From positions 2,720,001-2,784,000 of the forward strand of contig CAXXLL010000003.1 of NCBI GenBank assembly GCA_963662545.2: DNA of 64,000 nt, read 5' to 3'. A program made the position numbers and the translations under genes. This stretch comes from Gammaproteobacteria bacterium. GTDB lineage: Bacteria; Pseudomonadota; Gammaproteobacteria; Ga0077536. Below the pieces are notes generated by a model that was given only the letters and a program-made list of their open reading frames with translations, was not told the DNA's origin and ran no database searches. Each line of letters begins with the position of its first letter. Within the stretch, counting starts at the first letter, position 1. Positions 8,014 through 54,294 of this stretch are shown piece by piece.

Positions 8014-8607
8014 TTGATGACTGGGATTGGCAAACCTGTACGGCGCAAGGAAGACCGGCGCTTTATCACGGGCGCGGGAACATACACGAGCAATGTCGAC
8101 TATCCCGACCAGGCACATCTCTATATCGTGCGTGCGCAAAATGTACATGCCCGGATACGTGACATCGACACATCGGCGGCACGGGCCGCCGAAGGTGTTG
8201 TCGCCGTCTACACTGCTGCGGATCTCCATGCCGGCGGGATAAGAGATATGCAGCCGGCATGGATCATCTACAACCCTGATGGGTCTCCAATGCATGAAGC
8301 CCCACGTGAAGCGTTGGCGGTTGAGCGCATCCGCTATGTCGGCCAGCCGCTGAGTGCGTCCTTCCTCGATTACGCTATGCCACGTGCGGATGATCTACCC
8401 GCATTCGAAGTTTCGGAATTAGATACGTTCTCGATATCGAATCCACTAGGCGCTAAGGGTGCCGGTGAGGCGGGGACCATTGGTGCACCGATTACAGTCA
8501 TGAACGCCATTTTCGATGCGCTCAAACCGATCGGTGTCACCGACCTTTCAATGCCGGCAACACCCACGAAGATCTGGTCGGCTGTTCAAGCGGCAAACAC
8601 TACCTAA
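8014..8607 (+). pseudogene. Internally deleted duplicate of the CoxL-like gene at 21340-23709
   Basis: About 110 N-terminal aa (to RYVGQP) are fused in frame to the last 85 aa or so (LSASFLDY...); near-identical DNA to the full copy. Confidence 0.9.
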
Positions 8608-23709: not shown

Positions 23710-23866
23710 TGTGCTGTCCCGTAATAAACTTCGATAAGTCGCGCAGGACTCGTGCCGCGATGCAAGGCGCGAGGAGGCGTCGTATCGGGAATACGGCAAC
23801 GACGAGCAACGCCGCAGCGTGGTGCGAGGACCAGCGAATTATGAAGGTTTATTACGGGACAGCACA
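23710..23866. mobile_element. MITE-like element (157 bp) flanked by CTAG
   Basis: Perfect 20-bp IRs TGTGCTGTCCCGTAATAAAC and GTTTATTACGGGACAGCACA; CTAG at 23706-9 and 23867-70; no transposase inside. Confidence 0.8.
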
Positions 23867-24182
23867 CTAGGGGCTGGATTGCAGGTAATTCGGAATATGC
23901 GGTCTGCGGATAGGAAGCATAACGCCCATCATCATCGCAATCGTCCCCCGTTGTGGGCGGCATCTCGGGCCGAGGAGCGAGTCCCGAGGTCGGATTGAGC
24001 CGTAGCATCTGGGCGACGAGTCACTCGTCGAGGTCGTCCAGTTAGGCATCTCCTTCTCAGCGGGGCAAATCATCGTGTGAGGCCGAGCGCCACCGACAGG
24101 ACCCGGTTCCGGATCTCACCGTTGCAAGCGCGAACCTGCTCCCCGACAAACGCGACGCCGCGCCAGGCTGATCGTCCCCCCC

Positions 24183-24794
24183 TCAACCCGACGCGCTGCG
24201 ACGCATGAGCGAGTGGAGGAGCATTTCGTAGAGCTCGTGGAATGCCTCCGAGATCGTCAGGTCCGTGGAATCGCTGAAGTCGGGTTCGCGCAATCGGTTG
24301 ATGCTGGCGAACACGATTTCGGCGACGAACGCCGGCTGCACCTCGCGGAAGACGCCGGCCTTGACACCGTTGTCGATGATCCGGCGCATGCCCTCGACGC
24401 GCAGGCTGATGTGCTCCTGCCAGATCGCCCGCGCGGGCTCCCATTCGTGGATGTCGGCGACCACAGCCTGGCTCAACCGCTCGGCGACACGCACCGCGAC
24501 CTGAAGATACTCGAACACCTGACGTTCTGGGTCCATGGTGTTATCGGTCGCATGGTCGGCTTCTTGCCTGATGCGGCTGAAGAAGTCATCCAGCACCTTC
24601 AGCACCAGCCTGTTCTTGCTCGGGGCGAGCTCATAGAGGGTGCGCTTCGAGCAGCTGAGACGCGCGGCGATCTCCGAGACGTTGAGCCGCGAGAACCCCT
24701 CGGCAAGGATGAGCGCTTCAAGTGCTTCGAGAGTCTCTGCGCTGCTCTTGCTGATCGGAGCGCTACGGGATTTACGGGGGAGCGTGGTCGGCAT
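24183..24794 (-). CDS. TetR/AcrR-family transcriptional regulator
   Basis: EGFSRLNVSEIAARLSCSKRTLY HTH. Confidence 0.9.
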   Translation of the reverse strand: MPTTLPRKSRSAPISKSSAETLEALEALILAEGFSRLNVSEIAARLSCSKRTLYELAPSKNRLVLKVLDDFFSRIRQEADHATDNTMDPERQVFEYLQVAVRVAERLSQAVVADIHEWEPARAIWQEHISLRVEGMRRIIDNGVKAGVFREVQPAFVAEIVFASINRLREPDFSDSTDLTISEAFHELYEMLLHSLMRRSASG

Positions 24795-24995
24795 GCTCGA
24801 ATTATATCCGAATGATTAACGCGGTCGCGTCGTCCGCCGCGGCATCGAAGCCCGATGAATTGTCCAGGGCCTTCTGGTCATTTCTCCGGGAACAGGGGAT
24901 CGGACAGATCGAAGAAATCGATCGAAATGCTCTTTTGGCCGCCCTCGGACTGATCCGCCGGGCGCGCGTGCGGACCGACTTGCTCCTCGCTGATC

Positions 24996-25397
24996 TCACC
25001 GAGCTGTGGCAGGCCCTTGCGCATCTTGTTGCCGGCCTCGACGACCTTCGCGTGGAGCTCGCCGCTGAACGGTACGCGATACGCGCGGCTCCGTGCCGCG
25101 CGGGCCGCTCGCCATGTCGGTCGCCCGCAGGAATATCTCGCCTTCCGCGCCGGTCGTCTTGTCCGGCTCGACCACGTAGATCGCGACGAGCTTGAAGCGT
25201 TTCGTGAGCTCGGCGCTCGTCGGCCACCCGAGCGGCGGCGGCAGGGAGAAATAGCTGACGAGGTAGAAAGCCGATACGACGACGACCATCAATGCTTTCG
25301 TCTTCCACGACCACGGGGTGTACAACAACAGCGCGGCGAGGAGCAGCGCGATGACGACGTAGGCCGCGACGAGACCCGATCGCCCGAGTAAGAACAC
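24996..25397 (-). pseudogene. Membrane hypothetical protein, probably frameshifted; third gene of the MotA/TolQ-like cluster
   Basis: Two TM helices and LGWP...VVEPDK, then a drift into a low-complexity frame. Confidence 0.5.
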
Positions 25398-25412
25398 GGT
25401 ACCGGTAATCTT

Positions 25413-26018
25413 TCAGAAGTTGATAATGCTTTTGAAAATGTGGCTAATCTGCCCGACGCGCCCGGACGTGTCGATCACGAAACGTACGGCGGTTTTCTCG
25501 TCGCCTTTCTCGTCGAGCAGCGTTTCGCCATTGTAAACGATTTCAAGTGCCGGATTGACCTTGTACACCTTCACCGTGGCGCTTACGGGCTGCCCCGTTT
25601 CCGTTGCGTAGTAGTGCAGATTGACGACGTATTCACCCGGCACGACGCCGCGCACGGTGACGAGTTCCTGGTTCAGTGGATTCAGGATTTCCTGGCCGTT
25701 GATGCTGATCCTGTCGTTGACTACGCCGCGGTCATCGCGGTCGAGGTGAATGAGCCCGGCCTCGCGATTGCGAAACCAAACGACGTTGCCGTTCGGGTCT
25801 TCGACCCAGGTGTCGATATCGTCCGGGTTGGAGTCGGGCCAGGTCACGGCGATGATGTATTCGGCTTTCGGATCGATGAGGCCTTTCTTCGCAACCGGGT
25901 TCATGAACATGATCGCGATCAGAAACAGGTAGGTGAACCCGAGCAGCGCATTGAACAGCAGATCCGTGAACGGATCCGAGCCGGTGCGCTTTCGATCCCA
26001 GGCATTCGTGTAGGCCAT
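25413..26018 (-). CDS. Single-TM hypothetical protein (ExbD/MotB-position partner)
   Basis: FTDLLFNALLGF TM with a conserved-looking Asp, then a periplasmic beta domain (DIDTWVEDP, LDRDDRG, GEYVVNLHYY). Confidence 0.7.
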   Translation of the reverse strand: MAYTNAWDRKRTGSDPFTDLLFNALLGFTYLFLIAIMFMNPVAKKGLIDPKAEYIIAVTWPDSNPDDIDTWVEDPNGNVVWFRNREAGLIHLDRDDRGVVNDRISINGQEILNPLNQELVTVRGVVPGEYVVNLHYYATETGQPVSATVKVYKVNPALEIVYNGETLLDEKGDEKTAVRFVIDTSGRVGQISHIFKSIINF

Positions 26019-26029
26019 GCCGACGTGTC

Positions 26030-26344
26030 TCAGCCGAGCGCGAGGCGCGACTGGGAAAGCCGCAGGATCTGCTCGAGCAGGATGTCGGCACCCTTTTCGA
26101 TCACGAGGTACTGCAGGCCGAGCAGAATGCTGCCAGTGAGCCCGGCAAGCGTGGTGAACAGCGCCGTGCCCATGCCGCCGAGGTACAGCAGGCCGATGAC
26201 GAGTGAGATGCGGCTGGGGTTGCCGGCGTCGAGTGCCTGCAGCAGCCCCTCGTTCCAGCTCACGACGAAACCGAATGCAATCACGCCCGTGATGAGCATC
26301 CACACGAGCATCAGCCAGTGCTTCTGATCCTGAATCATGGGCAT
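26030..26344 (-). pseudogene. MotA/TolQ/ExbB proton-channel-family protein, internally deleted
   Basis: GMGTALFTTLAGL...LGLQ C-terminal motif joined directly to the N-terminal TMs; only 104 aa. Confidence 0.65.
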
Positions 26345-26586
26345 TTCAGTCTCCGTCTTGTTCCAGCGTGAACATGACGATCTGCTTCAGCGTCGCGTTC
26401 ATGCGTCGCGCGAAATCGTTGACGCGCGGGTCAATGCGTATACGCGAATAATATTAGTGCCTACTAACATTTTTGGTGCCAGATCGAGTCAAATATTACC
26501 TGCGTATAAGCAGTATAAACAGGCTTTTCGTCCAGCAGCATCCCGTCGTCACGTTTGTCGGTGGCCGGTCTGACCCGCGAACGCCC

Positions 26587-27207
26587 TCAAACCGGTATTC
26601 CGGCGCCCGAATCTACCCCGGCCGCGGGTTCGCCTGTGCACGGTTCGCCGTGGCACCGGCCCACAGGCCAGCCGCCACCGTGGCCGCGCCGCTGGTGTCG
26701 CAGCGTGAAAACCTTGCGGCCCTGTTGCGGTCCGACCGCGATGCGGTACGTGATTGACGAACCCAGGAGCTCATCCATCGGCCCAGCCTCGAGGCCATCG
26801 CCGGCCAGATAGCTGTTCTGCGCGTCCCGCGTAAGCCACCCCTGCGGTTCGAGATCGCAGACATCCTGCATGCCAATCCGCGATGTCAGCATGTCCGCCG
26901 CTCGGACGAACTCCGCTGTCAGATCGAGACCGCTTACGCGACAGCCGAATTCCGCGGCCAGCGTGCGTGCAGGGCCGCTGATATCGCATCCGAGGTCGAG
27001 CACATGCATGTCCGCCCGCATACCGGCAAAAGCGGCGAGGTCACGGGTCGAGGCAATACCGCCGCCATGAAATTCGTCGAATGGCGTCCGGTCGCGGCGT
27101 TCGAGTCGTTCCAAGTCACGCCCCGCCACCCGCAGGCTGGCGAGAATCCGGGCGCAACTATCGGCGCTGCCGTAATGCTGCTCGACGGCGTGCTCAGGCG
27201 ACTCCAT
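26587..27207 (-). pseudogene. SAM methyltransferase 5' fragment fused to an IS91 transposase remnant
   Basis: DEFHGGG...VLDLGC...GPARTLA, then LEPQGWLTRDAQNSYL...SITYRIAVGPQQGRKVFTL. Confidence 0.75.
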
Positions 27208-27228
27208 CAGCCACCCGCCAGGCGTGGT

Positions 27229-27918
27229 TCAACGAAGGTAGTCATGCAGAACCTGGCCGTGTTCGAGCGCGCACGAGCTTTCGAAGAAGTAGCCCCCCTC
27301 AATGGATTTAATCGGAATGTCGGCCACGCGATCCGATGGCGATTCACCGAAGACGAGGGTGGCGGGGCCGCAATGCACATCTCCGATCTGCATGTTGGTC
27401 AGTGTGGTCGTGGTCAGTTGATCGACGTCAGGCGGGGCGCCGAGTGCGACGTTGGGGATGAACTTGCGCGTAACCCATTCGGTTGTGCCGCCCAGGTCTT
27501 CCGCAGGCATCATTGATTGCATGCGCATGGACGCGTCGATCACCGTGAACCCGCCGCGCTCAACCGTCGCGCGCACGACATCATCGGTGGTGTCGAGCGT
27601 CAGGCGGCCAAGTTTCTTGGGATACCCCCAGATTTCGCGCCCAGCGCCCATCGCGACGTCGCTATCCAGTATCATATAAATACTGAAGTTGACGAAGCGT
27701 CGATCGTAGGTTGCATGAGTGGAAATGTGCGCCTCGTAATAGCGGCCGACGCCAGAGCACAGGAAATCCACGACCTGGGCGAACATCAGGCTATCCTTGT
27801 TTGGTGTTAGCGGGGGCGGAACCAGTTGGCGCAGAACCTTGGGGTCTGTTTTGAACGCCACAGTGATCTGACTCATTTCGCGATAATGGAACGGCGGTTT
27901 GCCGTAAAGTTCGGACAA
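27229..27918 (-). pseudogene. Acetoacetate-decarboxylase-family gene, 5'-truncated copy
   Basis: GREIWGYPKK motif; lacks the first 18 aa and the RBS of the copy at 34147-34890. Confidence 0.75.
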
Positions 27919-28027
27919 GCTGGATTCTTGGGGACCCGGTGTTTATGCTTCCTATACTCCGCGCAGCAGATTGTCGATTTGGCAAAAAATGCCGGTTATG
28001 CTTATCCCTCCTAAAGGAGGGACCGCG

Positions 28028-28717
28028 ATGATTAAAGGCTATGCACTCATTCCCAAAAAACCGGAAATTAGTCTGGAGCAATTCCACCGTCATTGGCGCG
28101 AAGTGCATGCGCCATTGGCCCTGCGAATTAAGGCGCTTAAGCGCTATGTCCAGGCCCATCGAATCCCGGCTAAAGTCGAGGGTTTCTCGAATAGCCCTTA
28201 CGAAGGATTTGCGGAGATCTGGTTTGAAGATCTGCAAACAGGTCTGGATTTAGGAGGCGATCCTGATTACCTCAACGGTGCCTACCTTGATGAGCCTAAT
28301 TTTATATCTGACGAGGGCCCGTCTTTTTTGATGACACGGGAAAATGTCGTCGTTGCCGGACCTGAGCTTGCTAAAGACGCGCCCGGCGTCAAAGCTGTCG
28401 TGTTGGTCAAGCGTAAACGGGGCTTAACGGTGGCCGAGTATCAGGACTATTGGCGGACCGGACACGCCGCCCTGGTACCCAAAACGCCCGGGCTACAGCG
28501 CTATGTCCAAAGTCATGTCGCACCAGAAACCTACGAATCTGGCGCCCCGGCGTACGATGGTGTCGCCGAATTGTGGTGGCAAGATATGGCTGCGTTCGAA
28601 CGAGGCTGGCTGTCCGAGGAGGTGCAGGTTGAACAGTTTAAAGACGCGTCGAATTTCGTTGACTTTGAAACCTCGGTCGGCCTGCTGGTGGAAGAAACGC
28701 GGGTAATCTGGCCCTAG
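28028..28717 (+). CDS. EthD-family protein with two tandem domains
   Basis: Repeated F/Y..HW...HA.L...YVQ.H...YDG.AE.W; AAGGAGG RBS. Confidence 0.85.
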   Translation: MIKGYALIPKKPEISLEQFHRHWREVHAPLALRIKALKRYVQAHRIPAKVEGFSNSPYEGFAEIWFEDLQTGLDLGGDPDYLNGAYLDEPNFISDEGPSFLMTRENVVVAGPELAKDAPGVKAVVLVKRKRGLTVAEYQDYWRTGHAALVPKTPGLQRYVQSHVAPETYESGAPAYDGVAELWWQDMAAFERGWLSEEVQVEQFKDASNFVDFETSVGLLVEETRVIWP

Positions 28718-28929
28718 AAGGGCTGGGCACTGGTTCGAAGTTAATTAAAGCGGCATCGGATCGATGCGCGTCGAGCACTGATTAGGAACGCCGGCTTACT
28801 GCAACGGCCGCTCATTACCTAGGCGATGTTCGTGATAGATTTTTCTAGCCCAGCGTGACACTGGGTGTTTTTCGTATTGTTGATAGAAAGTATTAATTTG
28901 CGAATCGGGAATGTCGCGCCATGGAAATT

Positions 28930-29375
28930 GCGTGTTCTTAATCCGTGGGAAAGAGGATCTTGGTGGGGAAAAATCCAAGCCCCAGCATGCCGAGAAAGCG
29001 GCCGCTGTCACCGTCGACCAGGTACGCTTTGCCGTTCACGAGGCTGTACAGGTTGATATCGTTGACCCACACCCAATGGGGGCCGGCCTCGGCGAGAAGC
29101 CGCTCGCTCTTCTGGACATCGTGTTCGAGTTCGGCGAAAGCAATCGTGCTCGTGATGAGTAGGCCGCAGATAACGGCCAGCACTTTTCGCTCCATGGAGG
29201 TACGATCTCTATGTGATGCGGTCGCGATGCCCTCTGATTTTACCCTTATCTTACGGTTGTATACTGCTCCTGGTACTTCGGGTCCCGCAATCAGGACGAC
29301 AGATATGGAGCGTGAACGATGAGCGCGACCGCGCCAGGCCCTGGCAGCCAAGTTAAAGCGACCGCAGAGGGTCGC
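28930..29375. repeat. About 445-bp duplicate of the mauB 5' end and divergent promoter (other copy 31293-31734)
   Basis: Near-identical with small indels; contains a truncated MERKVLAVIC...ILFPTD ORF starting at 29195 on the minus strand. Confidence 0.9.
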
Positions 29376-29492
29376 TTTAATTGGGAAGATCCCCTGGGCT
29401 TGCACGATCAACTCAGTGAAGAAGAGCGCCTCACCCACGCTGCGGCCCGCCAGTTCTGCCAGGAACGTCTCATGCCGCGCATCCTCGAGGCG
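29319..29492 (+). pseudogene. Glutaryl-CoA/acyl-CoA dehydrogenase 5' fragment
   Basis: FNWEDPLGLHDQLSEEER...ARQFCQERLMPRILEA. Confidence 0.75.
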
Positions 29493-29856
29493 CCATGTTG
29501 CCGATGTTTACATAGGTTTCAGGCGTCTCGGGACTGATCTTCAGAACGTTATTGTAATCGCCGTAGCCGTCCTCAAAGTTCCCGTTCGCTACGCGGATTA
29601 CGCCGCGATTGATGAGCGTTGCGACGCGGTCTTTGAAACCCAAAGCTTCGGTTTCGAGCGCCCGGTCGCAGGGCTCCACATCGACCGTGCCAACGTCGCG
29701 CGTGGAGGCGGCGAATTGCGCCGACGTCGCACAGGTATGGGCATCTTCGCTACCCCCGATGACGGACATGGCCTGAGCAAACGCACTGCCAGGCGCGAGC
29801 GCGAGGAGGAATAAGCAGTAAGGCCAGAACTTGAGCATCATCTGCGGTCCCTGCAA
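29490..29856 (-). pseudogene. Secreted TPR protein, 3'-truncated
   Basis: Signal peptide, C...CDRAL, ATLINRGVI and YVNIGN TPR-like motifs. Confidence 0.6.
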
Positions 29857-29893
29857 TTAATTAGCGTACAGGGCACAGGGTAAGTTTTTACAG

Positions 29894-30421
29894 CTAATGA
29901 TCAGGCTCCGTCGCCACCCCGATGATCGCCGCATACGAGCAATTGACGACGGTATTGCCGTTCGCCGTGCACCAATTGATCTCACTACTCTTGGAGGGAT
30001 GATAAAGAGGCTCGACGCCCTCGGTGCGGGTGCAGCCGCAGCGTGGGCAGATCGTTTTGCCGCAGCAATCGTGATAGGAGATCACGTAATCTTTGTTATC
30101 GGCCGGGTTGCGGCACGTGCCGATCCAACTTATGACCGAAGGCTCAGTGCCGGGCGGGCAGCTGCCCGCCGTGCCGCCGCAACACGCGCATAGGAAGCCA
30201 GACATGCCGCAGTAGCGCCAATAGTCGCAGCTCGTCGGATCACCGGGATCCTCGGGGTTGCCCTTAGCATCGGTGGCGCCGCGGGCAACGGGCAGCAGTG
30301 GGTATGCGGCCGTACCCACGAGCACGGTCCCCAAGCGGGTGAGAAAACTGCGCCGCGACGTGCGGCTCGCGAGCGTGCGGGACATCCGCACCGACCAGCT
30401 ATCAAACCAGGACATCTTCAT
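29894..30421 (-). CDS. mauA: TTQ amine dehydrogenase light (beta) chain, MauA/AauA-like
   Basis: Tat signal SRRSFL, CDYWRYC, CACCGG, SWIGTC and YHDCCGK, plus a second Trp in INWC. Confidence 0.9.
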   Translation of the reverse strand: MKMSWFDSWSVRMSRTLASRTSRRSFLTRLGTVLVGTAAYPLLPVARGATDAKGNPEDPGDPTSCDYWRYCGMSGFLCACCGGTAGSCPPGTEPSVISWIGTCRNPADNKDYVISYHDCCGKTICPRCGCTRTEGVEPLYHPSKSSEINWCTANGNTVVNCSYAAIIGVATEPDH

Positions 30422-31557
30422 GGAATTTGCAAAAACACCGGTGAGGCGCCCAACTCATCCACGGTGCGCAAATGTTCACCGGATTTGGCATCGTATACAT
30501 CGAGGGTCGAACCTCCGAATAACGTCGTAAAAAGCAACGGCTCGGCATCCTGGCTGACCCGTACTGCAGTCGCCGGATGCTTGGCCTTAATGCGTTGTAA
30601 TCGGACGTGCTTCTCGAAATCGTAAACCCATATCTCTTCGGCGGGATCCCAGAACGTGTATTTCCCGCCCTTATGCATCAGGACGAACAAGCGCTGATTC
30701 GCCGCGTGGGCGGCGATTAACTGATGTCCGCCGACTCGCCATGATGCTTGGCGCTCGTCCTCGCTCGCTAATGACCAGGGGGTCGAGAGCGTTAACTCCT
30801 TCCCGCTAGCGTCGAACGTATGTATATATCCCTCGCGAGATACGAACAACCATCGATTTCCGATTCGAACGCCGTCTTCCTCGATCGGATCCTTGTCCGG
30901 ATCGAAAGCCGATTTCGTCAGTGTTCTGTCTATTTCTTGGCCCTGGTCATCGAGTTGCAGGGACATCAAGGAGCCGTCGCCACAGATCATGAAGAAGCTA
31001 TGCGAGCCTGTCGGATAGACCAGGGAGCAGCCGGGCGTTTCGATTTCGCTCAAGGTTTTGCGTGCTTTCACGTCGATAACCGTGACAGATTGCGCCGGCG
31101 TGAAGTTGTAGATGACGATAAATCGGTCTGCGTCGGTAATAGCCATATGGCCTTCGGTCGGGATACCGGTCAGGCGTTTATTCGGGATTATTATCTCGCC
31201 GATCGGTTTTAATTCCTGCGCGTCGTAGATGCCGATGATATCAGTGCGTTCGCCGCGAGTGCCGCGCGAATAGTAGGTCTCGGTCGTGTAAAGCGTGTTC
31301 TTATCCGTGGGAAAGAGGATCTTGGTGGGGAAAAGTCCAAGCCCCAGCATGCCGAGAAAGCGGCCGCTGTCACCGTCGACCAGGTACGCTTTGCCGTTCA
31401 CGAGGCTGTACAGGTTGATATCGTTGACCCATACCCAATGGGGGCCGGCCTCGGCGGGAAGCCGCTCGCTCTTCTGGACATCGTGTTCGAGTTCGGCGAA
31501 AGCAATCGTGCTCGTGATGAGTAGGCCGCAGATAACGGCCAGCACTTTTCGCTCCAT
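30418..31557 (-). CDS. mauB: TTQ amine dehydrogenase heavy (alpha) chain, MauB/AauB-like
   Basis: ETYYSRGTRGERTD, YNFTPAQSVTVID, IETPGC and WRVGG motifs; ATGA overlap with the light chain. Confidence 0.9.
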   Translation of the reverse strand: MERKVLAVICGLLITSTIAFAELEHDVQKSERLPAEAGPHWVWVNDINLYSLVNGKAYLVDGDSGRFLGMLGLGLFPTKILFPTDKNTLYTTETYYSRGTRGERTDIIGIYDAQELKPIGEIIIPNKRLTGIPTEGHMAITDADRFIVIYNFTPAQSVTVIDVKARKTLSEIETPGCSLVYPTGSHSFFMICGDGSLMSLQLDDQGQEIDRTLTKSAFDPDKDPIEEDGVRIGNRWLFVSREGYIHTFDASGKELTLSTPWSLASEDERQASWRVGGHQLIAAHAANQRLFVLMHKGGKYTFWDPAEEIWVYDFEKHVRLQRIKAKHPATAVRVSQDAEPLLFTTLFGGSTLDVYDAKSGEHLRTVDELGASPVFLQIP

Positions 31558-32363
31558 GGAGGTACGATCTCTATGTGATGCGGTCGCGATGCCTCTGATT
31601 TTACCCTTAATCTTACGGTTGTATACTACTCCCGGTACTTCGGGTCCCGCAATCAGGACGACAGATATGGAGCGTGAACGATGAGCGCAACCGCGCCGGC
31701 CCTGGCAGCCAAGTTAGCGACCGCAGAGGGTCGCATTCTTCTTTCGCCTCGGCGTGTGAAATCTCTACGTTGCTCAGAATGTCATCAACTATCGAAGCCA
31801 GAGGTCTGTACGACATCAGCGCTTCCCGTCGGGCCGTTGGTACGTTCCGGTACACCCAACCTTCGGGGGGCAGCGCGCTACTTCTTGCTTCGTCGACCAC
31901 TGCTTAGGGCCTATTCAACTCCCAGCGAATTATGGCAGCAGTTGCCGTCTTAAACGTTTGGCGACAAGGGTCTGGTCTTGGCCGAACGCCGCCGCCCGTC
32001 ATGCTCATCCCGCCGAACGCTATTGGATGACTGCTTCCGAGGGGATTGCAGACGTAATTCTTAGCACTTTTGCACTGCCGTGATTTGGCCGCTGACGACC
32101 CTATATAGCTAGTCTGTCCCGCTTTCCGCGATCCTAGACGCAGCCGGCAGGTAGCTGTCGGTGAAGGCGGGACATGCACCCGCAGACTACGAATAAACGA
32201 CCCAAACACACGATGTTTGCCGCTTTGATTTCGAGTCCGCGGGTGCGCTTGAGTTCGTCAACGAATACTCAGGGCTAGCCGTCGTACCGGCTCCTATATT
32301 GGCTTCGCAGAACTCGAGCGCGCATGTCCCTTCATCAACAGGTAGCACCTCGGGAGGCACAAG

Positions 32364-33419
32364 ATGAACACCCACGATGATTTTGAGTTCACCGCCTACG
32401 TCGGCATCGACTGGTCAGACACCAAACACGATATCTGCATTCAACCCGCCGGCCACCATGACCGGACGTTCGAGCAGATCGCGCATCAGCCTGCGCATAT
32501 CGAACACTGGGCACAATCGATGCGTGAACGTTTCGGTGGACCCATCGCCGTCGTCCTTGAGTTGTCCAAAGGACCGATCGTTTCGGCCCTGCAGAAGTAC
32601 GACTTCTTCGTGCTGTTTCCGGTCAATCCTTCGATGCTTGCGAAGTACCGCGAAGTCTTCAAACCATCCGGCGCCAAGGATGACCCGACCGACGCCGAGT
32701 TGGCCGTCGATTTAGTCTTACGCCATCGCGAGCGCTTCAAACCCCTGCGACCGCAGAGCATCGAGATGCGCACCCTCGCGCACCTGGTCGAGAAACGACG
32801 GCGCCTCGTCGAAGACCGCCTGCGATTCTCGAATCGCCTCACCAGTACCCTGAAAGCTTATTTCCCGCAAGCGGTCGAGTGGTTCTCCCATAAGAACACC
32901 TTCGTCTTTTGTGCCTTCATCACCCGCTGGCCGACCCTCAAACAGGTCAAGCGCGCCCGGCAGACGACCCTGGAAAGCTTCTTTCGCGAACATCGTGTTC
33001 GGCGACCGCTTATCGTCCAGGCACGTATCCAGGCCATCAGAGACGCGACCCCGCTCACCGACGACCCCGCCGTCATCGAACCCTGCGTACTGGAAGCCGT
33101 TGCCCTCGCTGGGCAGCTCAGAACCACCCTCGAGATCATCAAACGCTTTGACGACGCCATCGCCGACCTGGCGCCATCCATGCCCGATTACAACGTGTTC
33201 GCGTCGCTGCCCGCTGCCGGCCCGGTCTTCACCTCCCGTCTCCTCGTCGCCTTCGGCGAAGACCGACAACGCTTCGGCAATGCCGATGAAGTCCAACGTT
33301 ACTCAGGCGTCGCTCGCGTCACCGAGCGCAGTGGCAAATCCTCCTGGGTGCATTGGCGCTGGGCGTGTCCCACCTTCGTGCGACAAACTTGCGTCGAATG
33401 GGCCGAAAAAACCGTCTTC
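32364..33419 (+). pseudogene. IS110-family DEDD recombinase, 3'-truncated by repeat copy B
   Basis: YVGIDWSD, VLELSKG, KDDPTDA and TERSGKS motifs; homology stops at the 33420 junction. Confidence 0.85.
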
Positions 33420-34836
33420 GCGTATAAGCAGTATAAACAGGCTTTTCGTCCAGCAGCATCCCGTCGTCACGTTTGTCGGTGGCCGGTCTGACCCGCGAAC
33501 GCCCTCAAACCGGTATTCCGGCGCCCGAATCTACCCCGGCCGCGGGTTCGCCTGTGTACGGTTCGCCGTGGCACCGGCCCACAGGCCAGCCGCCACCGTG
33601 GCCGCGCCGCTGGTGTCGCAGCGTGAAAACCTTGCGGCCCTGTTGCGGTCCGACCGCGATGCGGTACGTGATTGACGAACCCAGGAGCTCATCCATCGGC
33701 CCAGCCTCGAGGCCATCGCCGGCCAGATAGCTGTTCTGCGCGTCCCGCGTAAGCCACCCCTGCGGTTCGAGATCGCAGACATCCTGCATGCCAATCCGCG
33801 ATGTCAGCATGTCCGCCGCTCGGACGAACTCCGCTGTCAGATCGAGACCGCTTACGCGACAGCCGAATTCCGCGGCCAGCGTGCGTGCAGGGCCGCTGAT
33901 ATCGCATCCGAGGTCGAGCACATGCATGTCCGCCCGCATACCGGCAAAAGCGGCGAGGTCACGGGTCGAGGCAATACCGCCGCCATGAAATTCGTCGAAT
34001 GGCGTCCGGTCGCGGCGTTCGAGTCGTTCCAAGTCACGCCCCGCCACCCGCAGGCTGGCGAGAATCCGGGCGCAACTATCGGCGCTGCCGTAATGCTGCT
34101 CGACGGCGTGCTCAGGCGACTCCATCAGCCACCCGCCAGGCGTGGTTCAACGAAGGTAGTCATGCAGAACCTGGCCGTGTTCGAGCGCGCACGAGCTTTC
34201 GAAGAAGTAGCCCCCCTCAATGGATTTAATCGGAATGTCGGCCACGCGATCCGATGGCGATTCACCGAAGACGAGGGTGGCGGGGCCGCAATGCACATCT
34301 CCGATCTGCATGTTGGTCAGTGTGGTCGTGGTCAGTTGATCGACGTCAGGCGGGGCGCCGAGTGCGACGTTGGGGATGAACTTGCGCGTAACCCATTCGG
34401 TTGTGCCGCCCAGGTCTTCCGCAGGCATCATTGATTGCATGCGCATGGACGCGTCGATCACCGTGAACCCGCCGCGCTCAACCGTCGCGCGCACGACATC
34501 ATCGGTGGTGTCGAGCGTCAGGCGGCCAAGTTTCTTGGGATACCCCCAGATTTCGCGCCCAGCGCCCATCGCGACGTCGCTATCCAGTATCATATAAATA
34601 CTGAAGTTGACGAAGCGTCGATCGTAGGTTGCATGAGTGGAAATGTGCGCCTCGTAATAGCGGCCGACGCCAGAGCACAGGAAATCCACGACCTGGGCGA
34701 ACATCAGGCTATCCTTGTTTGGTGTTAGCGGGGGCGGAACCAGTTGGCGCAGAACCTTGGGGTCTGTTTTGAACGCCACAGTGATCTGACTCATTTCGCG
34801 ATAATGGAACGGCGGTTTGCCGTAAAGTTCGGACAA
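33420..34836. repeat. 1417-bp direct repeat, copy B
   Basis: Matches 26502-27918. Confidence 0.95.
33505..34125 (-). pseudogene. SAM methyltransferase fragment fused to an IS91 remnant (copy B)
   Basis: Same as 26587-27207. Confidence 0.75.
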
Positions 34837-34890
34837 TTCGGGCATGCTATAGCTGCGCGCACTCAAGCTGTCAGCGGGCTTCCGGGCCAT
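34147..34890 (-). CDS. Acetoacetate-decarboxylase-family protein
   Basis: SMP...YGKPPFHY and GREIWGYPKK Schiff-base Lys motif; GGAGA RBS. Confidence 0.85.
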   Translation of the reverse strand: MARKPADSLSARSYSMPELSELYGKPPFHYREMSQITVAFKTDPKVLRQLVPPPLTPNKDSLMFAQVVDFLCSGVGRYYEAHISTHATYDRRFVNFSIYMILDSDVAMGAGREIWGYPKKLGRLTLDTTDDVVRATVERGGFTVIDASMRMQSMMPAEDLGGTTEWVTRKFIPNVALGAPPDVDQLTTTTLTNMQIGDVHCGPATLVFGESPSDRVADIPIKSIEGGYFFESSCALEHGQVLHDYLR

Positions 34891-35164
34891 GGTCGTCTCC
34901 CCAGGGAACTGAAATGAAGGCGACTAGTATATCCGCAGGCGGTCACACGGCAGATTTCGACATGGATATAAGTAGCCTGAAATGCGCAGAAAACTGATTG
35001 TCGTCGTGTTCGCCGCGCTCGCCGCATTACGATGGCCCGGCGGGCACTCATTTCGATGGTGTGCACTTCCATAGACTAAAGTGCGGAGGTATGCATGATG
35101 CCACTTTGAGCGGCTGCGTCGGACGGCGGCGGCGATCCGGACCCGCCCCGCGTGCAGGCGGCGC

Positions 35165-36316
35165 TTACTCGAGTTTACCGAAATTGATCCGCATGTCGTC
35201 GGGCGTGATGTCGACCTTTACCCGCGTCGCGCGCTGGGGCACGCGTTCACCGTCGATGACGCGGGGCCTGAACCGCCATTTGCTCACCGCCGACAGCACT
35301 GCTTGGTCGAATACGCCTGCGGGAAAAGACTCCAGCACCCGGGCGCCGGTGGCGCGTCCGTCGGTAGTGATGTCGAGCTCAGCCAGCACCCATCCTTCGC
35401 GTTCGTTGATGCCCCTGGGAATGATCGGATACACCATGACCAGCGGCTTTGCTTCACCTTCCTCGTCCTTGATTAGTTCCACCAGCTTGTCGCCGTGATA
35501 TTTTTGTCGCTCGTCGTTTTTCAGAGCTTCGTACACTGCGGCCAGGCTGCCGTGCGCCCGCAAGATGCGCGTATCGTCTTCGGGGAGTTGTTCCTGAAAG
35601 ATCCGCAGCGCGTCCAGATAGTATTTTTCCGCCGATTCGAACTTGTTCAGGCGGTTTTCGATTGCACCGCGCTGGAGGATGATCTCGCCCACGGCGGGAT
35701 GACGTTCACCCATCGACTTTGCGATGATCTCCTGCGCGCGTATCAGTGAATTGTGTGCGTTCGGCCCCTCGCCGATATTAGCTTCGAAACTGGCGATATT
35801 GATCAGCAGCGCGGCGATCTCCGGATCGTCCGGTCCCTTGTTGGTCTTCAAGACGTTCAGCGTTTTGCTGTAATAAAGACGCGCTTTGCCGAATTCGCCC
35901 TGGGCCCAGCGCAGCACTGCGAGGTCCCGATACACGGTCAACAGATTCATGTCCGTCTCGCTGTTGATGCTCGACAGCATCTCCTGGGCGCGGAGCAGAT
36001 GAGCCTCCGCCTCCTCCAGGCGCCGAAGTTCGAACAACACGTGGCCGAGATTTATCTCGAGGACGGCAGTCTTTTCATGGTTGGGTCCCAGCTCGGCGAT
36101 GCCCAGCTCGAGCGCCCGGGCGGCCAGCTCCGCGGCCTCCTCATGCTCACCGTCGATGTAGGCCTTGTCATAACCCCGATAGGCCTCCATGAAGGCGTCT
36201 GACACATCCTGAGCCGCCGCCGGGAGGCAACCCAGCACCGCACACAAGCATGTTACGAGGGCGGGTTTGCGAATTCTCCTGTTCATCGTCCGTCGCGCGG
36301 GTGGCTGTGGGCGCAA
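35165..36316 (-). CDS. Periplasmic TPR-repeat protein with a C-terminal TonB domain
   Basis: Signal peptide, kinesin-light-chain-like TPRs (LGPNHEKTA, GERHPAVG), and EGWV...FDQAVLSAVSKWRFRP TonB_C; start may be 36286. Confidence 0.8.
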   Translation of the reverse strand: MRPQPPARRTMNRRIRKPALVTCLCAVLGCLPAAAQDVSDAFMEAYRGYDKAYIDGEHEEAAELAARALELGIAELGPNHEKTAVLEINLGHVLFELRRLEEAEAHLLRAQEMLSSINSETDMNLLTVYRDLAVLRWAQGEFGKARLYYSKTLNVLKTNKGPDDPEIAALLINIASFEANIGEGPNAHNSLIRAQEIIAKSMGERHPAVGEIILQRGAIENRLNKFESAEKYYLDALRIFQEQLPEDDTRILRAHGSLAAVYEALKNDERQKYHGDKLVELIKDEEGEAKPLVMVYPIIPRGINEREGWVLAELDITTDGRATGARVLESFPAGVFDQAVLSAVSKWRFRPRVIDGERVPQRATRVKVDITPDDMRINFGKLE

Positions 36317-36586
36317 AATATACCAGACCGACTTAGGCTACTATAGCCGTTGCCCGCCCGACGAATCATCCAGCGCTTGCACAAGGGTAGTTTTGTTCGA
36401 AAGAATCCGCCGGATGAACTCGGATCATTCACAGTGTGCGGCATACCCCGGGCACCCGGCGGAGCGGGGTTTCGTTCGCGACCGCGACCCTGATCCCGCG
36501 CCCGCGGCTGCGGTACCCTCTGCAGGCGGGACCGCCGAGCCGTCGCATGCCGGTATCGGCTGACGCCCGGCGCACTTACCGCACTG

Positions 36587-36730
36587 ATGTCCGTCGCTGT
36601 AATTATACCGACCCACAACCGCGCGCCGGTGCTGGCCCGCGCACTCGACTCGGTGCTGCGTCAGGAGCCGAAACCGGGTGAGATAATCGTGGTGGACGAC
36701 GGCTCGACGGACGACACGCCGGTTATGTGA
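36587..36730 (+). pseudogene. GT2 glycosyltransferase 5' fragment
   Basis: MSVAVIIPTHNRAPVLARALDSVLRQ...EIIVVDDGSTDDT, then stop. Confidence 0.8.
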
Positions 36731-37178
36731 CAACGGCGATCCGTGCGGCTCGTGGCCTGAGTTGTCCGGACCGCCGGATCTCACTTTGGTGCGCGACACC
36801 ATTGCGACCTTACGCGCGTTGAACAAAGAAGAGGCGGTCGATCTGATCTGGTACGGTGGCGCTCGCTCGGGCACGGATGCGGCGAAGCTCATCGCCATGG
36901 GATGCAAGGCGGTGGTCTACGGCCTGCCGGTCGCTCTCGCGGTAGGCGGATCGATGTCCGCCGCGGGCCTCGACTTCACCGCCGACCGCAGCGCAGACGA
37001 GCGGTCGGACGCGACCGTCAACATCATGAAAGCATATGCGGCCGAAGCCTCCATGATGGCGCGATGCACCGGCAAGACCCGGCTGCACAACCTCGAGCCC
37101 GAGAACCTCCGCTCGATCACGATCGCCCCTGCGGACACGAGCGGGATACCGATGCCCGGCACACGCTTGGAGGCCTGA
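36730..37178 (+). pseudogene. FMN-binding glutamate-synthase-family C-terminal fragment (GlxD/MgsC-like)
   Basis: GGARSGTDAAKLIAMG and MMARCTGKTRLHNLEPENLRSIT motifs; no N-terminus. Confidence 0.7.
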
Positions 37179-37221
37179 ACCGCTCTTTTCGCCCGCTCGA
37201 GGGCGAACAACTCCCGGTGAG

Positions 37222-38295
37222 CTAGCTCCCGCCCAATAGCTGCGCCTTGCGCACGTCTCCCTTGCGAATCGAGCGCCCGGAGGCCGCGAACGCCAGACCG
37301 ACGAGCAGCCGAATCACGGTACCGAGAACCGGCCATTTATATCGCGCCTGCATCGCCGCGTACGGCCGATCGCGCTCCCACGCCCGTTGAACGATCGCGA
37401 GGATCTCCGCAGGGTCCTCCCTGCGTCCGGGACGCTGGCGCGCAGTGGCCAGATCGGTCTCGGCGTTCTTCTTGAGGAGCATGTCCATCTCGGCAACCAG
37501 AAAGTTGCGGGGGTGCAGGAAGTCGGACGTTGCGAGCACGGGCCCCCGCTCGCGGACTGCCACGAGCTCGAATCCGGCCTTCTCGCAGAGCCCCGCGAGC
37601 GTCGTGCGCGAGAAGTAATACGTGTGTACCAGCTTGAAGTACTGAGGAATGCCGCGCCGCAGGACGAGGCCGCGCAGATCGGGCGTCTGTAGATAGAGAT
37701 AGCCACCGCTGCGCAAGACGCGATTCATCTCCACGAGCGCCGCGAGGGGATCGACGAAGTGCTCGATGATCGCGAGCCCGTTGACGAGATCGAAGGTGCC
37801 GGATGGCAGGCCGTTCTGCATGAAATCGGTTTGATGCACCTCGATACCGAACCGCTCCCCGGCAATCGTCGCGGCCTGCACCGACTGCTCGATGCCCAAT
37901 AACCGGTTCGAATCGTCGAAATTTTTCAGCCACGCGCCGTAGCCGCAGCCGATATCGAGAATGGACCAGCCCCCCACTTCGGGCAGGTGACCAATCAACC
38001 ATTGGAAAAGAACGTCGTGCCGCCATTCGCAGGCGTGCAGATGCTTGTCGATGTCGAAGCCGTCGGACGACTGGCCGACGTAGTACTCGCTGCCGTAGAA
38101 GCGGGCCAGGGCATCGCCTACAGGCTGCGGATTGAGAAACGACAGCCCGCATTTCGCACAGACGACCGCCTGCAGAGGCTGACCGAACAAGTGCCCCGGG
38201 TGCCTGACACGCGAGGACATGAGCGGCTCGTGATGTGTCGGATCGGCGCCGCATGCGACGCACGGCACGAGCTTGAAGCGCGGCGTGTCGCTCAT
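37222..38295 (-). CDS. Class I SAM-dependent methyltransferase with N-terminal Zn-finger-like Cys motifs
   Basis: CVACG, CAKCGLSFLNP, ILDIGCGYG and IIEHFVDP motifs. Confidence 0.85.
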   Translation of the reverse strand: MSDTPRFKLVPCVACGADPTHHEPLMSSRVRHPGHLFGQPLQAVVCAKCGLSFLNPQPVGDALARFYGSEYYVGQSSDGFDIDKHLHACEWRHDVLFQWLIGHLPEVGGWSILDIGCGYGAWLKNFDDSNRLLGIEQSVQAATIAGERFGIEVHQTDFMQNGLPSGTFDLVNGLAIIEHFVDPLAALVEMNRVLRSGGYLYLQTPDLRGLVLRRGIPQYFKLVHTYYFSRTTLAGLCEKAGFELVAVRERGPVLATSDFLHPRNFLVAEMDMLLKKNAETDLATARQRPGRREDPAEILAIVQRAWERDRPYAAMQARYKWPVLGTVIRLLVGLAFAASGRSIRKGDVRKAQLLGGS

Positions 38296-38690
38296 CTCGA
38301 AAGGCCGGCCATGTCGAGAACCCTCGGGATATGCCGCTCCCAGCCGAGCGCCATGAAATGCACGCCGGCACAGACTCCGTCGAGCGCTCCGATGGTACGC
38401 GCCGCTATCTCGAAGCTCGTCATAACGACGTCCTCGGCGTCGCGAAGCGCTTCCATGATCGCGTCGGGGACGTTGATCCCGGGGACGTTGCCGCCCAGGT
38501 CCCGGTCCTGATTCAGGGACTGCACGGTCTTCAGCAGGCCGATCGCCTCGAGATTGAAGACGGCTTTCGCGTCCGGGTGGTCGCCCGCGGCGGGATCGTC
38601 ACCTGACATGCACACCACGTTGCGCAGCCCGAGCGCGTGCGCGGACAGCAGATCCGCCTGCAGGGCGATGCGGTTTCGATCGCGATCCGA
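38292..38690 (-). pseudogene. Methylenetetrahydrofolate reductase (MetF-like) fragment
   Basis: RDRNRIALQADLL...NVVCMSGD...GDHP and GVHFMALGW; 5' end and a middle part are missing. Confidence 0.75.
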
Positions 38691-39395
38691 GCTTGCACAT
38701 GTTTTTACGCGGGATCCCCTTACTCCCGGCGCGCGCGGGTACCACAGGCATATAGGAAATATAACCCCCTTATATGGTGGGTTTCCAGGCTATCGGGTTA
38801 TTCATTGTGGCGGGACTGACGCTGTTCATGGCGTGATCAGGCGGTGGTTGCGGCGGAATTTGTGTGGAATTTAGGGCGAGATCGGGCGGACATGCGGGGT
38901 CAGGTTGAACAAGAGCCTGCCGCATCGGGGCACGGCATCTGTGGGGGAACGGGGCAGTTCAGGTTGTGTTGAACAGGCTGGCCTGAGGGGGTGCCCGGGG
39001 TTCGGGTAATGAATTGATCCGGGTGATGGGCTTGGTTCTGTCGAGGTGGTCGAGAATCTTGCGGATGACGAGGGGGTCTTCGATGCAGGCCATGACCTTC
39101 AGGGTGCCGTCACAGGCCTGGCAGGTGGTGATGTCGATGTGGCCTACAGGGATGTAGGTCAGGGGCATGAGCAGGACGCGGAAGCTTTGAAGACCCGCTT
39201 GAGGCGTTGCGCCCAGGTCGCCGCTCTTGCGCATCCCTGCGCCCGCGGCATTAGTGCATCCCTGCACGTCATGGCGGTATGGCGCTCGGCGGGGGTTCGG
39301 TCGTGTGTCTCGTCGGTGGCGCTCTTGCGGCCCTTGCCGCGCCTGGCCGGAGTGATCAGTGCCCGGTGTTTGCTGTTGGGGGCGAAGACACCGTG

Positions 39396-39467
39396 ACAAA
39401 TTTATCTGGAATAAATTTGGACGACCGAAGGTCGCCCGAAGGGTGAGGAACAGGGATGTTCCTCATC
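39396..39467. repeat. 72-bp multi-hairpin insertion within the IS91 transposase
   Basis: Separates TRF and HGVFAP; related to 40056-40128. Confidence 0.75.
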
Positions 39468-40055
39468 AAAGCGGGTGAGGTTGACTCGGGGTTTGGGGAT
39501 CAGTGCGGCGAGGCGTGCAATGAAATCCAGCGGCTCGAAGATCACGTGGGTCGTTCCGTCACGCCAGGGGTTCTTGAGGGTGTATCGGACCTGGCTGTGT
39601 TCGGTCAGTGACAGGCGCTTTTCGGATACGGCGGGGCGGGTGATGGTGCGGCACAGGCGTTCGAGCTTGTCGCGTTCATGGGCTTTGGCCGCCACACCGG
39701 CATGCAGGGAGAATCCGGCGACATTGCCCATCCGGGTGGAGAACGGTTCGTCGCTGGCGGGGAGTGACTGCAGGGTTAGCACCTTGCGTCCCTGGCGGGG
39801 TCCGGTGGCGATGCGGTAGGTGACGGAATGCCCGGTCAGGGACGCCATGGGATCGTCACTTTCGGTGTCCATGCTCAGGTATGCGGTCTCGTCATCGCGC
39901 ACTAGCAGTCCCTGGCGTTCGAGAAAGCGGCTCACGCGATGGGCAATGGTGTGGGTCAGCCGGGTGAGTTCGTCGCTCGTGGGTGCAGTCACCCATCGAA
40001 ACCGCGTGCCGGCGCGGGTGTCATCCACATAGACGCCATCGAGGAACAGCATGTG

Positions 40056-40128
40056 ACAAATCGGCAGGACAGCCGATTTGCACGACCGAAGGTCGCCCAA
40101 AGGGTGGCGCACACGGATGCGCGCCATG
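40056..40128. repeat. 73-bp multi-hairpin insertion splitting the HUH motif
   Basis: Lies between NVHL and HMLFLDG; shares ACGACCGAAGGTCGCCC.AAGGGTG with 39396-39467. Confidence 0.75.
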
Positions 40129-40357
40129 TAAGTGGACATTGAGGTTGAGTGCGCCGCCGAAGCGCTGAATGAGGGTGACGGCGCCGGTGCGCGCGGTGGT
40201 GGCGGTGTAGCCGGCCTTGCGAATCAAGTGGGCCTCGCGGGTCGGCTATTCAGATCTGGGCGTGAATCGCAAGCGCGTCGAAGCGTTGCGAGCGCAGCTT
40301 CCGACCGGCGCGCGATAACGCGAGCCACACAACCAAGAGGTGTCCGCGTTCTTTTCA

Positions 40358-52438: not shown

Positions 52439-53206
52439 GCATATAGGAAATATAACCCCCTTACATGGTGGGTTTCCAGGCTATCGGGTTATTCATTGTG
52501 GCGGGACTGACGCTGTTCATGGCGTGATCAGGCGGTGGTTGCGGCGGAATTTGTGTGGAATTTAGGGCGAGATCGGGCGGACATGCGGGGTCAGGTTGAA
52601 CAAGAGCCTGCCGCATCGGGGCACGGCATCTGTGGGGGAACGGGGCAGTTCAGGTTGTGTTGAACAGGCTGGCCTGAGGGGGTGCCCGGGGTTCGGGTAA
52701 TGAATTGATCCGGGTGATGGGCTTGGTTCTGTCGAGGTGGTCGAGAATCTTGCGGATGACGAGGGGGTCTTCGATGCAGGCCATGACCTTCAGGGTGCCG
52801 TCACAGGCCTGGCAGGTGGTGATGTCGATGTGGCCTACAGGGATGTAGGTCAGGGGCATGAGCAGGACGCGGAAGCTTTGAAGACCCGCTTGAGGCGTTG
52901 CGCCCAGGTCGCCGCTCTTGCGCATCCCTGCGCCCGCGGCATTAGTGCATCCCTGCACGTCATGGCGGTATGGCGCTCGGCGGGGGTTCGGTCGTGTGTC
53001 TCGTCGGTGGCGCTCTTGCGGCCCTTGCCGCGCCTGGCCGGAGTGATCAGTGCCCGGTGTTTGCTGTTGGGGGCGAAGACACCGTGACAAATTTATCTGG
53101 AATAAATTTGGACGACCGAAGGTCGCCCGAAGGGTGAGGAACAGGGATGTTCCTCATCAAAGCGGGTGAGGTTGACTCGGGGTTTGGGGATCAGTGCGGC
53201 GAGGCG
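52439..53206 (-). mobile_element. 768-bp copy of the IS91 3' end (matches 38748-39515)
   Basis: Starts at the same oriIS-like motif and carries the same hairpin insertions. Confidence 0.9.
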
Positions 53207-53590: not shown

Positions 53591-54244
53591 TGAATGCGGT
53601 ATCGGTGCCCGGGAGAGTCCGAACCAAAGGGCGTGGGGAGGTACTTTGAGGCCGAAAGAATTGACGTGGCTAATCGGCTCGCGCTTCGGCGACACTGCCG
53701 CACGCGCCGCCGGAAGCATCGCGCGAAAGCATACCCCGCGCTTTGTCGAGGTAAATGCATAGAACATAAACTTTGATCTAAAAGCATGGAGAGGTGCCAG
53801 AGTGATCGAATGGAGCTGACTCGAAAACAGGCATGCCTGAAGATTGTTCTTGGGGGGAACACGCGGGATATCTCGTTATCCACTTAGTCAAAGATTTCGC
53901 GAACTAGATCTAGTAACGTGCCTCTTTCGATTACCCCTTCCGTATCTTTGTTCGACGAGTTACAAACCGTTGATGCTTGAGCACCAACAAAAATACATCT
54001 GCGATTGCACTCGACACACATACTCATGCTCGTTCTCAACGGAGCTTACGGTTTGCAGGTTTTCGAACGCAAACCTTCGCTTGTTATCCGCGCCTGTAGT
54101 CCGGAGTGATTTGGTGTCATTGTTACGATGACGTGCTACCCGAATCGGCACGAGCTATCGCCGAATACCTGCCACCAAACCTGCCATCTAAATCAGCAAG
54201 TCGTCAAAGGAATTTACTGCTTCGGTGTTAACTTGTTGAATATA

Positions 54245-54294
54245 TGGTGGCCAGGGGCAGAATCGAACTGCCGACACAGGGATTTTCAGTCCTC
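54245..54294 (-). other. att site: 3' half of tRNA-Phe(GAA)
   Basis: rc GAGGACTGAAAATCCCTGTGTCGGCAGTTCGATTCTGCCCCTGGCCACCA has the anticodon loop, T-arm and CCA; the D-arm and 5' acceptor strand are absent. Confidence 0.85.

Follow-up and report, generated by a model that had tools for sequence, protein, structure and literature searches.

A near-identical 1417-bp repeat begins at an orphan ISCR-type oriIS and encloses metabolic genes in a gammaproteobacterial genome

How does a piece of DNA that begins exactly at the end of a decayed mobile element come to stand on both sides of a block of metabolic genes? The question is raised by a window of 64,000 nucleotides (the whole stretch analysed here, G000:C3:2720001-2784000) from a gammaproteobacterial genome of 5.58 Mb in three contigs. 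In this window a 1417-bp unit, U, occurs as copies A and B, which differ by a single mismatch at 26639 and lie between a left flank, L, and a right flank, R', with an insert, X, between them (Table 1). We favour, with a probability of roughly 0.55, a reading in which ISCR-style aberrant rolling-circle events were fired in trans from the orphan oriIS in U, followed by homologous rescue of a circle made up of U and X. An initial annotation, made from the sequence alone, had described the repeat as a candidate non-autonomous IS91/ISCR gene-capture unit.

The point at which the two copies begin is the first element of the answer. Both start at GCGTATAAGCAGTATAAACAGGC (minus strand ..GTTTATACTGCTTATACGC), at the very point where an ISCR-type oriIS has its outer end, 2 nt beyond TATAC. 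Searching both strands of the genome with the expression TTTAT[AG]C(3-6)TATA[CG] gave 8 matches, one of which lies ~230 bp 3' of an ISCR-type transposase gene of 516 aa; the same spacing of ~230 bp past the transposase stop is found in genome G023 and in a plasmid ISCR element. Plasmid NZ_CP071767.1 carries the exact motif at four ISCR ends and a short variant at a fifth, and 3 of its 3 full-motif ISCR copies with common upstream sequence lose identity at TATAC+2. OriIS-anchored truncated ISCR copies of ~38 bp and ~927 bp lie on the same plasmid. The TATAC+2 end recurs in two more repeat pairs of the genome, 27959 with C2:723317 and 38748 with 52439. The latter pair (copies C and D) is a direct repeat of 768 bp with 1 mismatch that starts exactly at an ISCR-type oriIS end, ..TTATATTTCCTATATGC, and copy C continues into a 273-aa transposase remnant. 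Since the offset is the same in the plasmid ISCR and in both further pairs, the A/B boundary is evidently the true end of the family and no chance break. The motif that had been called oriIS-like is, accordingly, a genuine oriIS of ISCR/IS91 type, with the repeat boundary at the exact end position of the family.

The duplication is sharply delimited. Identity between A and B is lost abruptly at both ends, with base-exact boundaries, and genome-wide BLAST returned two full copies only, plus a third, partial copy (C3:2122372-2122657) that is 94% identical to 26420-26704. No inverted pairs of at least 40 nt were found within 20000-42000. Nor was there any sign of a target duplication, no direct repeat being common to the sequences that flank A and B. 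In these respects the initial description, of a repeat that begins exactly at the motif and ends mid-gene without an inverted repeat or a target site duplication, was accurate. It had also raised the possibility of an assembly artefact, in which one copy only would be real. Nothing speaks for this except the near-identity of A and B. Contigs from four public runs were placed on the locus, with bridging defined as an overlap of at least 31 letters with U. The left junction of A is bridged in run X3 and the right junction in X1, while contigs of X15 (possibly the source sample) and X16 over the same two junctions reach 30 letters into U, short of this threshold. The flanks of B, which differ from those of A, are visible as loose ends of contigs, the left in X15 and X16 and the right in X16 and X3. 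Furthermore, in X15 and X16 the word depth is about twice as high over U as over its flanks, although this contig-derived depth is a weak measure. Taken together, these observations make an artefact very unlikely.

The content of U reveals why it could not have moved by itself. Its 203-bp module, comprising a 3' untranslated region and oriIS, is collinear with the noncoding stretch from the transposase stop to oriIS in G023:C131, in the 516-aa element of this genome and in a plasmid ISCR. It is followed by an internal transposase fragment with 62% protein identity to the 516-aa relative (81% across 156 nt). U is a remnant and not an autonomous IS91/ISCR member, because it holds this 74-aa internal fragment only and both PF14319 and PF04986 sit in the separate 516-aa open reading frame (ORF). 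More specifically, U joins an orphan oriIS end, left over from a decayed ISCR (IS91-family) element, to what remains of a methyltransferase gene and to an acetoacetate decarboxylase (ADC) gene. Of the 277 methyltransferase residues, the first 119 are retained; the full 277-aa gene adjoins ADC in genomes G006, G011 and G014, but with other flanks than here. This composition modifies two earlier statements. A transposase stub does lie next to the motif on the minus strand, but inside the repeat and not outside it, and of the two passenger genes that had been assigned to the repeat, ADC stands, whereas the other (ORF 26587-27207, 206 aa) is a chimera of the methyltransferase N-terminus, the transposase fragment and read-through. 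The expectation that a transposase would be needed in trans agrees with a unit that encodes nothing of the enzyme beyond 74 aa.

Table 1. Coordinates of the repeat units, the insert and associated features (window positions unless a contig is named)
Feature	Position	Strand	Remarks
Left flank L, conserved gene cluster	24878..26432		paralogous to C2:2396492-2398901; present in relatives
Outer module, ~69 bp, AT-rich (~43% GC)	26433..26501	-	common to copy A and the third copy only
Unit U, copy A	26502..27918	-	1417 bp; left junction old, right junction new
3' untranslated region and oriIS module, 203 bp	26502..26704	-	oriIS motif 26502-26524
Internal ISCR/Y2 transposase fragment, 74 aa	26698..26919	-	alignment with the 516-aa relative spans its aa 233-302
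S-adenosylmethionine methyltransferase, first 119 codons	26851..27207	-	fused in frame to the transposase fragment
ADC family gene, PF06314	27229..27918	-	5'-truncated in copy A
Insert X, 5501 bp	27919..33419		between the U copies
R-type ISCR element, last 39 bp (oriIS end)	27921..27959	+	facing outward
EthD-domain protein gene	27971..28717	+	
Methylamine-dehydrogenase-type chains	29894..31557	-	heavy 30418-31557, light 29894-30421
IS110-family transposase gene	32364..33419	+	truncated at residue 352 by copy B (oriIS end)
Unit U, copy B	33420..34836	-	left junction new (IS110 remnant / oriIS), right side old
Complete ADC gene, 247 aa	34147..34890	-	extends from copy B into R'
Second oriIS-anchored repeat, copy C	38748..39515	-	transposase remnant goes on to 40223
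Second oriIS-anchored repeat, copy D	52439..53206	-	cut off inside the transposase gene
Apparently intact ISCR-type transposase ORF, 516 aa stop to stop	C3:2499002-2500549		Zn_Tnp_IS91 (PF14319) and Y2_Tnp (PF04986)

The insert X differs from its surroundings in base composition (GC 0.569 as against 0.61-0.63 for L, U and R'), and both of its ends fall in truncated mobile elements whose lost parts are not in the genome. At the left, X begins 39-41 bp inside the end of an R-type ISCR element, the body of which is missing from the genome. The remaining segment, 27921-27959, is 95% identical to C2:723317-723355 and is also present in a same-genus genome. It contains the second oriIS-like motif that had been noticed at 27939-27957, which is thus real. 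The right flank of copy A, with this R-type remnant, and its left flank, with the outer module, have no similarity to each other, and the idea that the two are parts of one R-type element was rejected. At the right, the IS110 ORF ends at residue 352, at the oriIS end of copy B, in agreement with the earlier view that one copy truncates an IS110. The truncated ORF retains DEDD_Tnp_IS110 and Transposase_20 and at full length would have ~420 aa; among nine relatives examined, seven have ORFs of 418-429 aa, and the other two (384 and 421 aa) have a divergent tail. A search of the genome with 7 tail peptides did not recover the missing part (best E 0.04).

The relative age of the four junctions helps to distinguish between the simplest explanations. 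The third copy passes the boundary at 26502 and runs ~69-82 bp further along with copy A, through the outer module, which on the minus strand ends in the oriIS-like ..TTATTCGCGTATACGCATTG. It differs from A at 16 of 286 positions, compared with 1 in 1417 between A and B. It stops at 26704, no more than a few bases from where U has its internal breakpoint (26700-26704), and has no continuation into a transposase gene. The proposal that copies would share the boundary and vary at the other end thus holds for A and B, but fails for the third copy, which extends past 26502. Run X3 represents a strain from a seawater metagenome with ~1% differences. One of its contigs, 26076-26534, crosses the left junction of A, and another covers 27226-27918 and then runs into the right flank of B, that is, into an intact ADC gene. 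The left junction of A is common to the diverged third copy and X3 and is therefore old. The right side of B is old as well, because its ADC gene is intact and collinear with relatives past 34836 and because the X3 contig leads from 27918 into the B flank. Both are, on this comparison of sequences, ancestral. It follows from the old outer junctions that the new joints are 27918/27919 and 33419/33420, i.e., both ends of X. The arrangement thus reads L-U-X-U-R', which by sequence no single insertion of U at either place would yield. Before the duplication, a single U with an intact ADC probably stood here, in the order L-outer-U-R'.

These junctions bear directly on plain one-ended transposition, in which the 1417-bp unit would have been copied once into the other locus with no homologous recombination. 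Such copying of one locus into the other was the interpretation first given to the repeat, and it accounts for a boundary exactly at oriIS, another end in mid-gene and the lack of target duplication or inverted repeat; it is documented for IS91 and IS1294 (PMC13181058). If A had been inserted, its left junction should be new, yet it is common to the older third copy and X3; if B had been inserted, ADC could not run seamlessly past 34836. Moreover, the sequences on the two sides of A do not make up one contiguous target, and the 3' part of IS110, expected beyond the insertion, is absent from the genome. With A keeping its old left junction and B its intact ADC, this explanation is decidedly unlikely. 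Searches for undisturbed sites complete the comparison. No empty site for A or B was found in the 40 and 25 related genomes searched (best matches 64-85% identical), and in the same relatives L never stands beside EthD, nor ADC beside the TPR/TonB gene. Scans of metagenome contigs gave 0 matches for the ADC stretch across 34836 and 0 for the oriIS end. For X3, the region 27921-28800 is uncovered and the loose end at the left junction of B is not among the matches listed; given the low cover, this is not counted as evidence.

The reading that we favour, rolling-circle events from the orphan oriIS with subsequent rescue, would produce the observed arrangement in three steps. First, a transposase would nick the orphan oriIS, and copying of U would begin at oriIS and end by chance within ADC, at 27918, the copy landing 39-41 bp inside the oriIS end of the R-type ISCR element, beside the EthD, amine-dehydrogenase and IS110 genes. 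Because the decayed structure is present in both U copies, this transposase would have been supplied in trans. Second, another aberrant rolling-circle round from the same oriIS would take in U together with 5.5 kb of the locus where it had landed, stop inside IS110 at 33419 and close into a U+X circle of 6918 nt. Third, homologous recombination of this circle with the chromosomal U would yield L-U-X-U-R'. What the sequences show is the anatomy, the base-exact boundary at oriIS, the ages of the junctions and the lack of a transposase in U; the rolling-circle steps, the circle, the supply in trans and the order of events we infer.

A number of points weigh against this sequence of events. The genome contains no donor locus for X; the first two steps would therefore have involved another replicon or cell, unless the donor locus was lost afterwards. 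The 516-aa ORF is the sole full-length ISCR-clade ORF in the genome, is 62% identical to the U fragment, and belongs to an element whose oriIS differs from that of U at ~5/20 positions; on these grounds a cognate transposase for U is no longer present in the genome. The joint predicted for the circle is identical in sequence to B's left junction, which makes the two indistinguishable in reads. No mobility was observed, and nothing here proves it. Furthermore, the single-U state of X3 could stem from a later deletion between two U copies. Other signals expected of a rolling-circle element were likewise not found. Nothing resembling a terIS was detected at either 27918 or 33419, nor any sequence common to the three stop points (27918, 33419 and 39515); the plasmid ISCR copies, being truncated or mosaic, yield no derivable terIS for comparison. 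The tetranucleotides next to oriIS are AGGT (A and the third copy) and GAAG (B), unmatched to the CTTG/GTTC rule of IS91, and no tetranucleotide consensus emerged among the 12 oriIS ends compared. The CTTG/GTTC-type rule has been established for IS91, IS801 and IS1294 (PMC13181058) and not for ISCR. Hairpins at oriIS were no better than those of shuffled sequences (z -1.21 to +0.95 in single-stranded DNA folds of 4 ends, both strands). Lastly, the differences between the third copy and A are unevenly spread, with 13/82 in the outer and 3/203 in the inner part (Fisher p = 1e-5), for which conversion or a second site-specific insertion is a possible cause.

Two further explanations draw on these points. 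Two old, independent ISCR insertions could have been homogenized later by gene conversion of the decayed structure together with neighbouring DNA. Gene conversion is common between repeats and would account for the uneven divergence of the third copy. It needs homology on two sides, though, whereas the identity of A and B ends abruptly at 27918 against unrelated sequence, and the tract must include 1.2 kb of DNA from outside the insertion sequence (methyltransferase, ADC) that had no reason to pre-exist at a second locus, which makes this account very unlikely. The other explanation dispenses with ISCR activity: X would have been inserted by illegitimate recombination or template switching that duplicated 1.4 kb, the coincidence with oriIS being due to chance or AT-rich breakage. 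The lack of terIS, target rule and significant hairpin fits this, as do segmental repeats in the region that have no ISCR ends (28930-29378 = 31293-31737 and 23443-23708 = 8341-8606). Against it stand the base-exact position of the boundary at the family end, a motif with just 8 occurrences over the 5.58 Mb, and the other repeat of the window, C/D, which is anchored alike. We regard this origin as unlikely, and return to the rolling-circle reading with rescue by recombination.

A candidate source of activity in trans lies elsewhere in the genome. In line with the earlier suggestion that an intact Y2 transposase be sought, the 516-aa ORF is a full-length member of the ISCR clade. It scores 696 bits on the NCBIfam model ISCR_clade_Ia, below the model cut-off of 925. 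At least 4658 plasmid records carry a transposase to which it is ~74% identical. The genome holds 23 Y2 matches, most of them partial, in agreement with many decayed copies. Relatives of the 516-aa transposase are found on thousands of resistance plasmids, and DNA of the host genome appears in sponge and seawater runs.

We compared the locus with the closest known systems. One is ISCR clade Ia (ISCR2-like), with which the oriIS motif, the stop distance of ~230 bp and the TATAC+2 end all match. It differs in that the U copy has no working transposase, the 516-aa ORF falls under the model cut-off, and the locus is chromosomal, in an organism of sponge and seawater runs, and carries metabolic and not resistance genes. 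In overall layout, the locus resembles the complex class 1 integrons of ISCR1. For these, the Toleman model, as outlined in PMC7707992, proposes a circle from twice-aberrant rolling-circle replication at oriIS that is inserted by homologous recombination. On the transposase strand, the order here is ADC-methyltransferase remnant, ISCR remnant with oriIS, unique region, 5'-truncated ADC-methyltransferase remnant and ISCR remnant; the integrons likewise have an upstream segment, ISCR with oriIS, a unique captured region and a 5'-truncated second upstream segment. The partial direct duplication that marks an ISCR1-type complex is present, flanking oriIS and the unique region, with X abutting the oriIS of B and A cut in ADC. 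In contrast to the integrons, the duplicated segment here includes the ISCR remnant, the ISCR is dead, and methyltransferase and ADC are duplicated in place of qacEdelta1-sul1.

For IS91, one-ended transposition, mobilisation of mini-IS91 by TnpA in trans and frequent failure of termination have been shown experimentally (PMC13181058). Our locus is similar to IS91/IS1294 and mini-IS91 in that an oriIS end would suffice, termination would be variable, no target duplication is made and action in trans is proposed. It differs in that these elements need a CTTG/GTTC-type tetranucleotide next to oriIS and have subterminal palindromes, neither of which is evident here (PMC13181058). A parallel for the cargo is cIS91sdpA of Sphingobium herbicidovorans, described as an 11-kb IS91 circle with catabolic genes (PMC5737581). 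It, too, comes from an environmental bacterium, IS91-type one-ended capture of catabolic genes was proposed, and oriIS is fixed, 167 bp 3' of the coding sequence; there, intact IS91 copies are present and the circle was seen by mobilome sequencing, whereas the present case is known from sequence alone (PMC5737581).

Most of what is known of ISCR elements comes from resistance plasmids, and direct demonstrations of their movement are rare. The transposase promoters of ISCR1, ISCR2 and ISCR8 are under LexA control (PMC13393415). Non-autonomous Helitrons also replicate by rolling circle, have no transposase, are moved in trans and capture fragments of host genes by read-through; they are eukaryotic, have other end signals and retain both ends. 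The element family, one-ended capture, mobilisation of minimal ends in trans and rescue by recombination are thus known already, and what this locus adds is an instance outside resistance plasmids, with metabolic genes and apparently driven by an orphan oriIS. The A/B event is very recent (1 difference in 1417 bp) and took place outside a clinical setting, and its product has the full layout of a complex integron, with only the oriIS end left of the ISCR. If rolling-circle events and rescue did form the locus, oriIS alone would suffice in nature, transposases would serve diverged ends in trans, and the capture-and-rescue route of resistance genes would also reshuffle ordinary metabolic genes. 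A more far-reaching version, which we consider possible but doubtful, is that the 203-bp orphan ISCR end, devoid of transposase and terIS, is a working natural launch pad. A diverged ISCR transposase would set it off in trans, and again and again it would collect and rearrange metabolic genes on the chromosome of a marine bacterium. Were this so, dead ISCR ends across genomes would be latent gene-capture sites, as with non-autonomous Helitrons. The locus provides a short substrate on which this can be tested, namely the 203-bp module together with the candidate 516-aa transposase.

Several smaller features accompany these elements. Inside X, the stretches 28930-29378 and 31293-31737 form a 450-bp direct repeat (97%) with no ISCR end at its borders, which duplicates the 5' end of the heavy-chain gene and its upstream region. 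Just 5' of the IS110 copy, at 31977-32105, lies a REP-like (repetitive extragenic palindromic) or MITE-like (miniature inverted-repeat transposable element) sequence of ~75-125 bp, with some 50 diverged copies (70-86%) over both large contigs. Two loci of a same-genus genome (G001:C8 and C3) match, at 94-95% identity, the 244 bp that precede the IS110 transposase start (32087-32330), while the transposase gene itself is unmatched there. These 244 bp have no Rfam match and may represent the noncoding left end of the IS110.

Elsewhere in the window, an empty site for copy D, sought through an ORF over its joined flanks, was rejected, since the paralogue shows the gene to start just inside the left flank, so that D is intergenic; contiguous D flanks were not found in relatives. 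ARAGORN detected 0 tRNA genes in the window, and 0 Rfam matches were obtained on 23000-41000. The repeat of 23443-23708 and 8341-8606 measures 266 bp (97%) and covers the 3' end of a molybdopterin oxidoreductase gene. Another dispersed repeat, of ~165 bp, lies at 23705-23870 and has ~30 genomic copies, some of them 98-100% identical. At 53787-53830 and 54236-54294, two stretches of 45-57 bp recur with 85-98% identity in many genomes of relatives and even of distant organisms.

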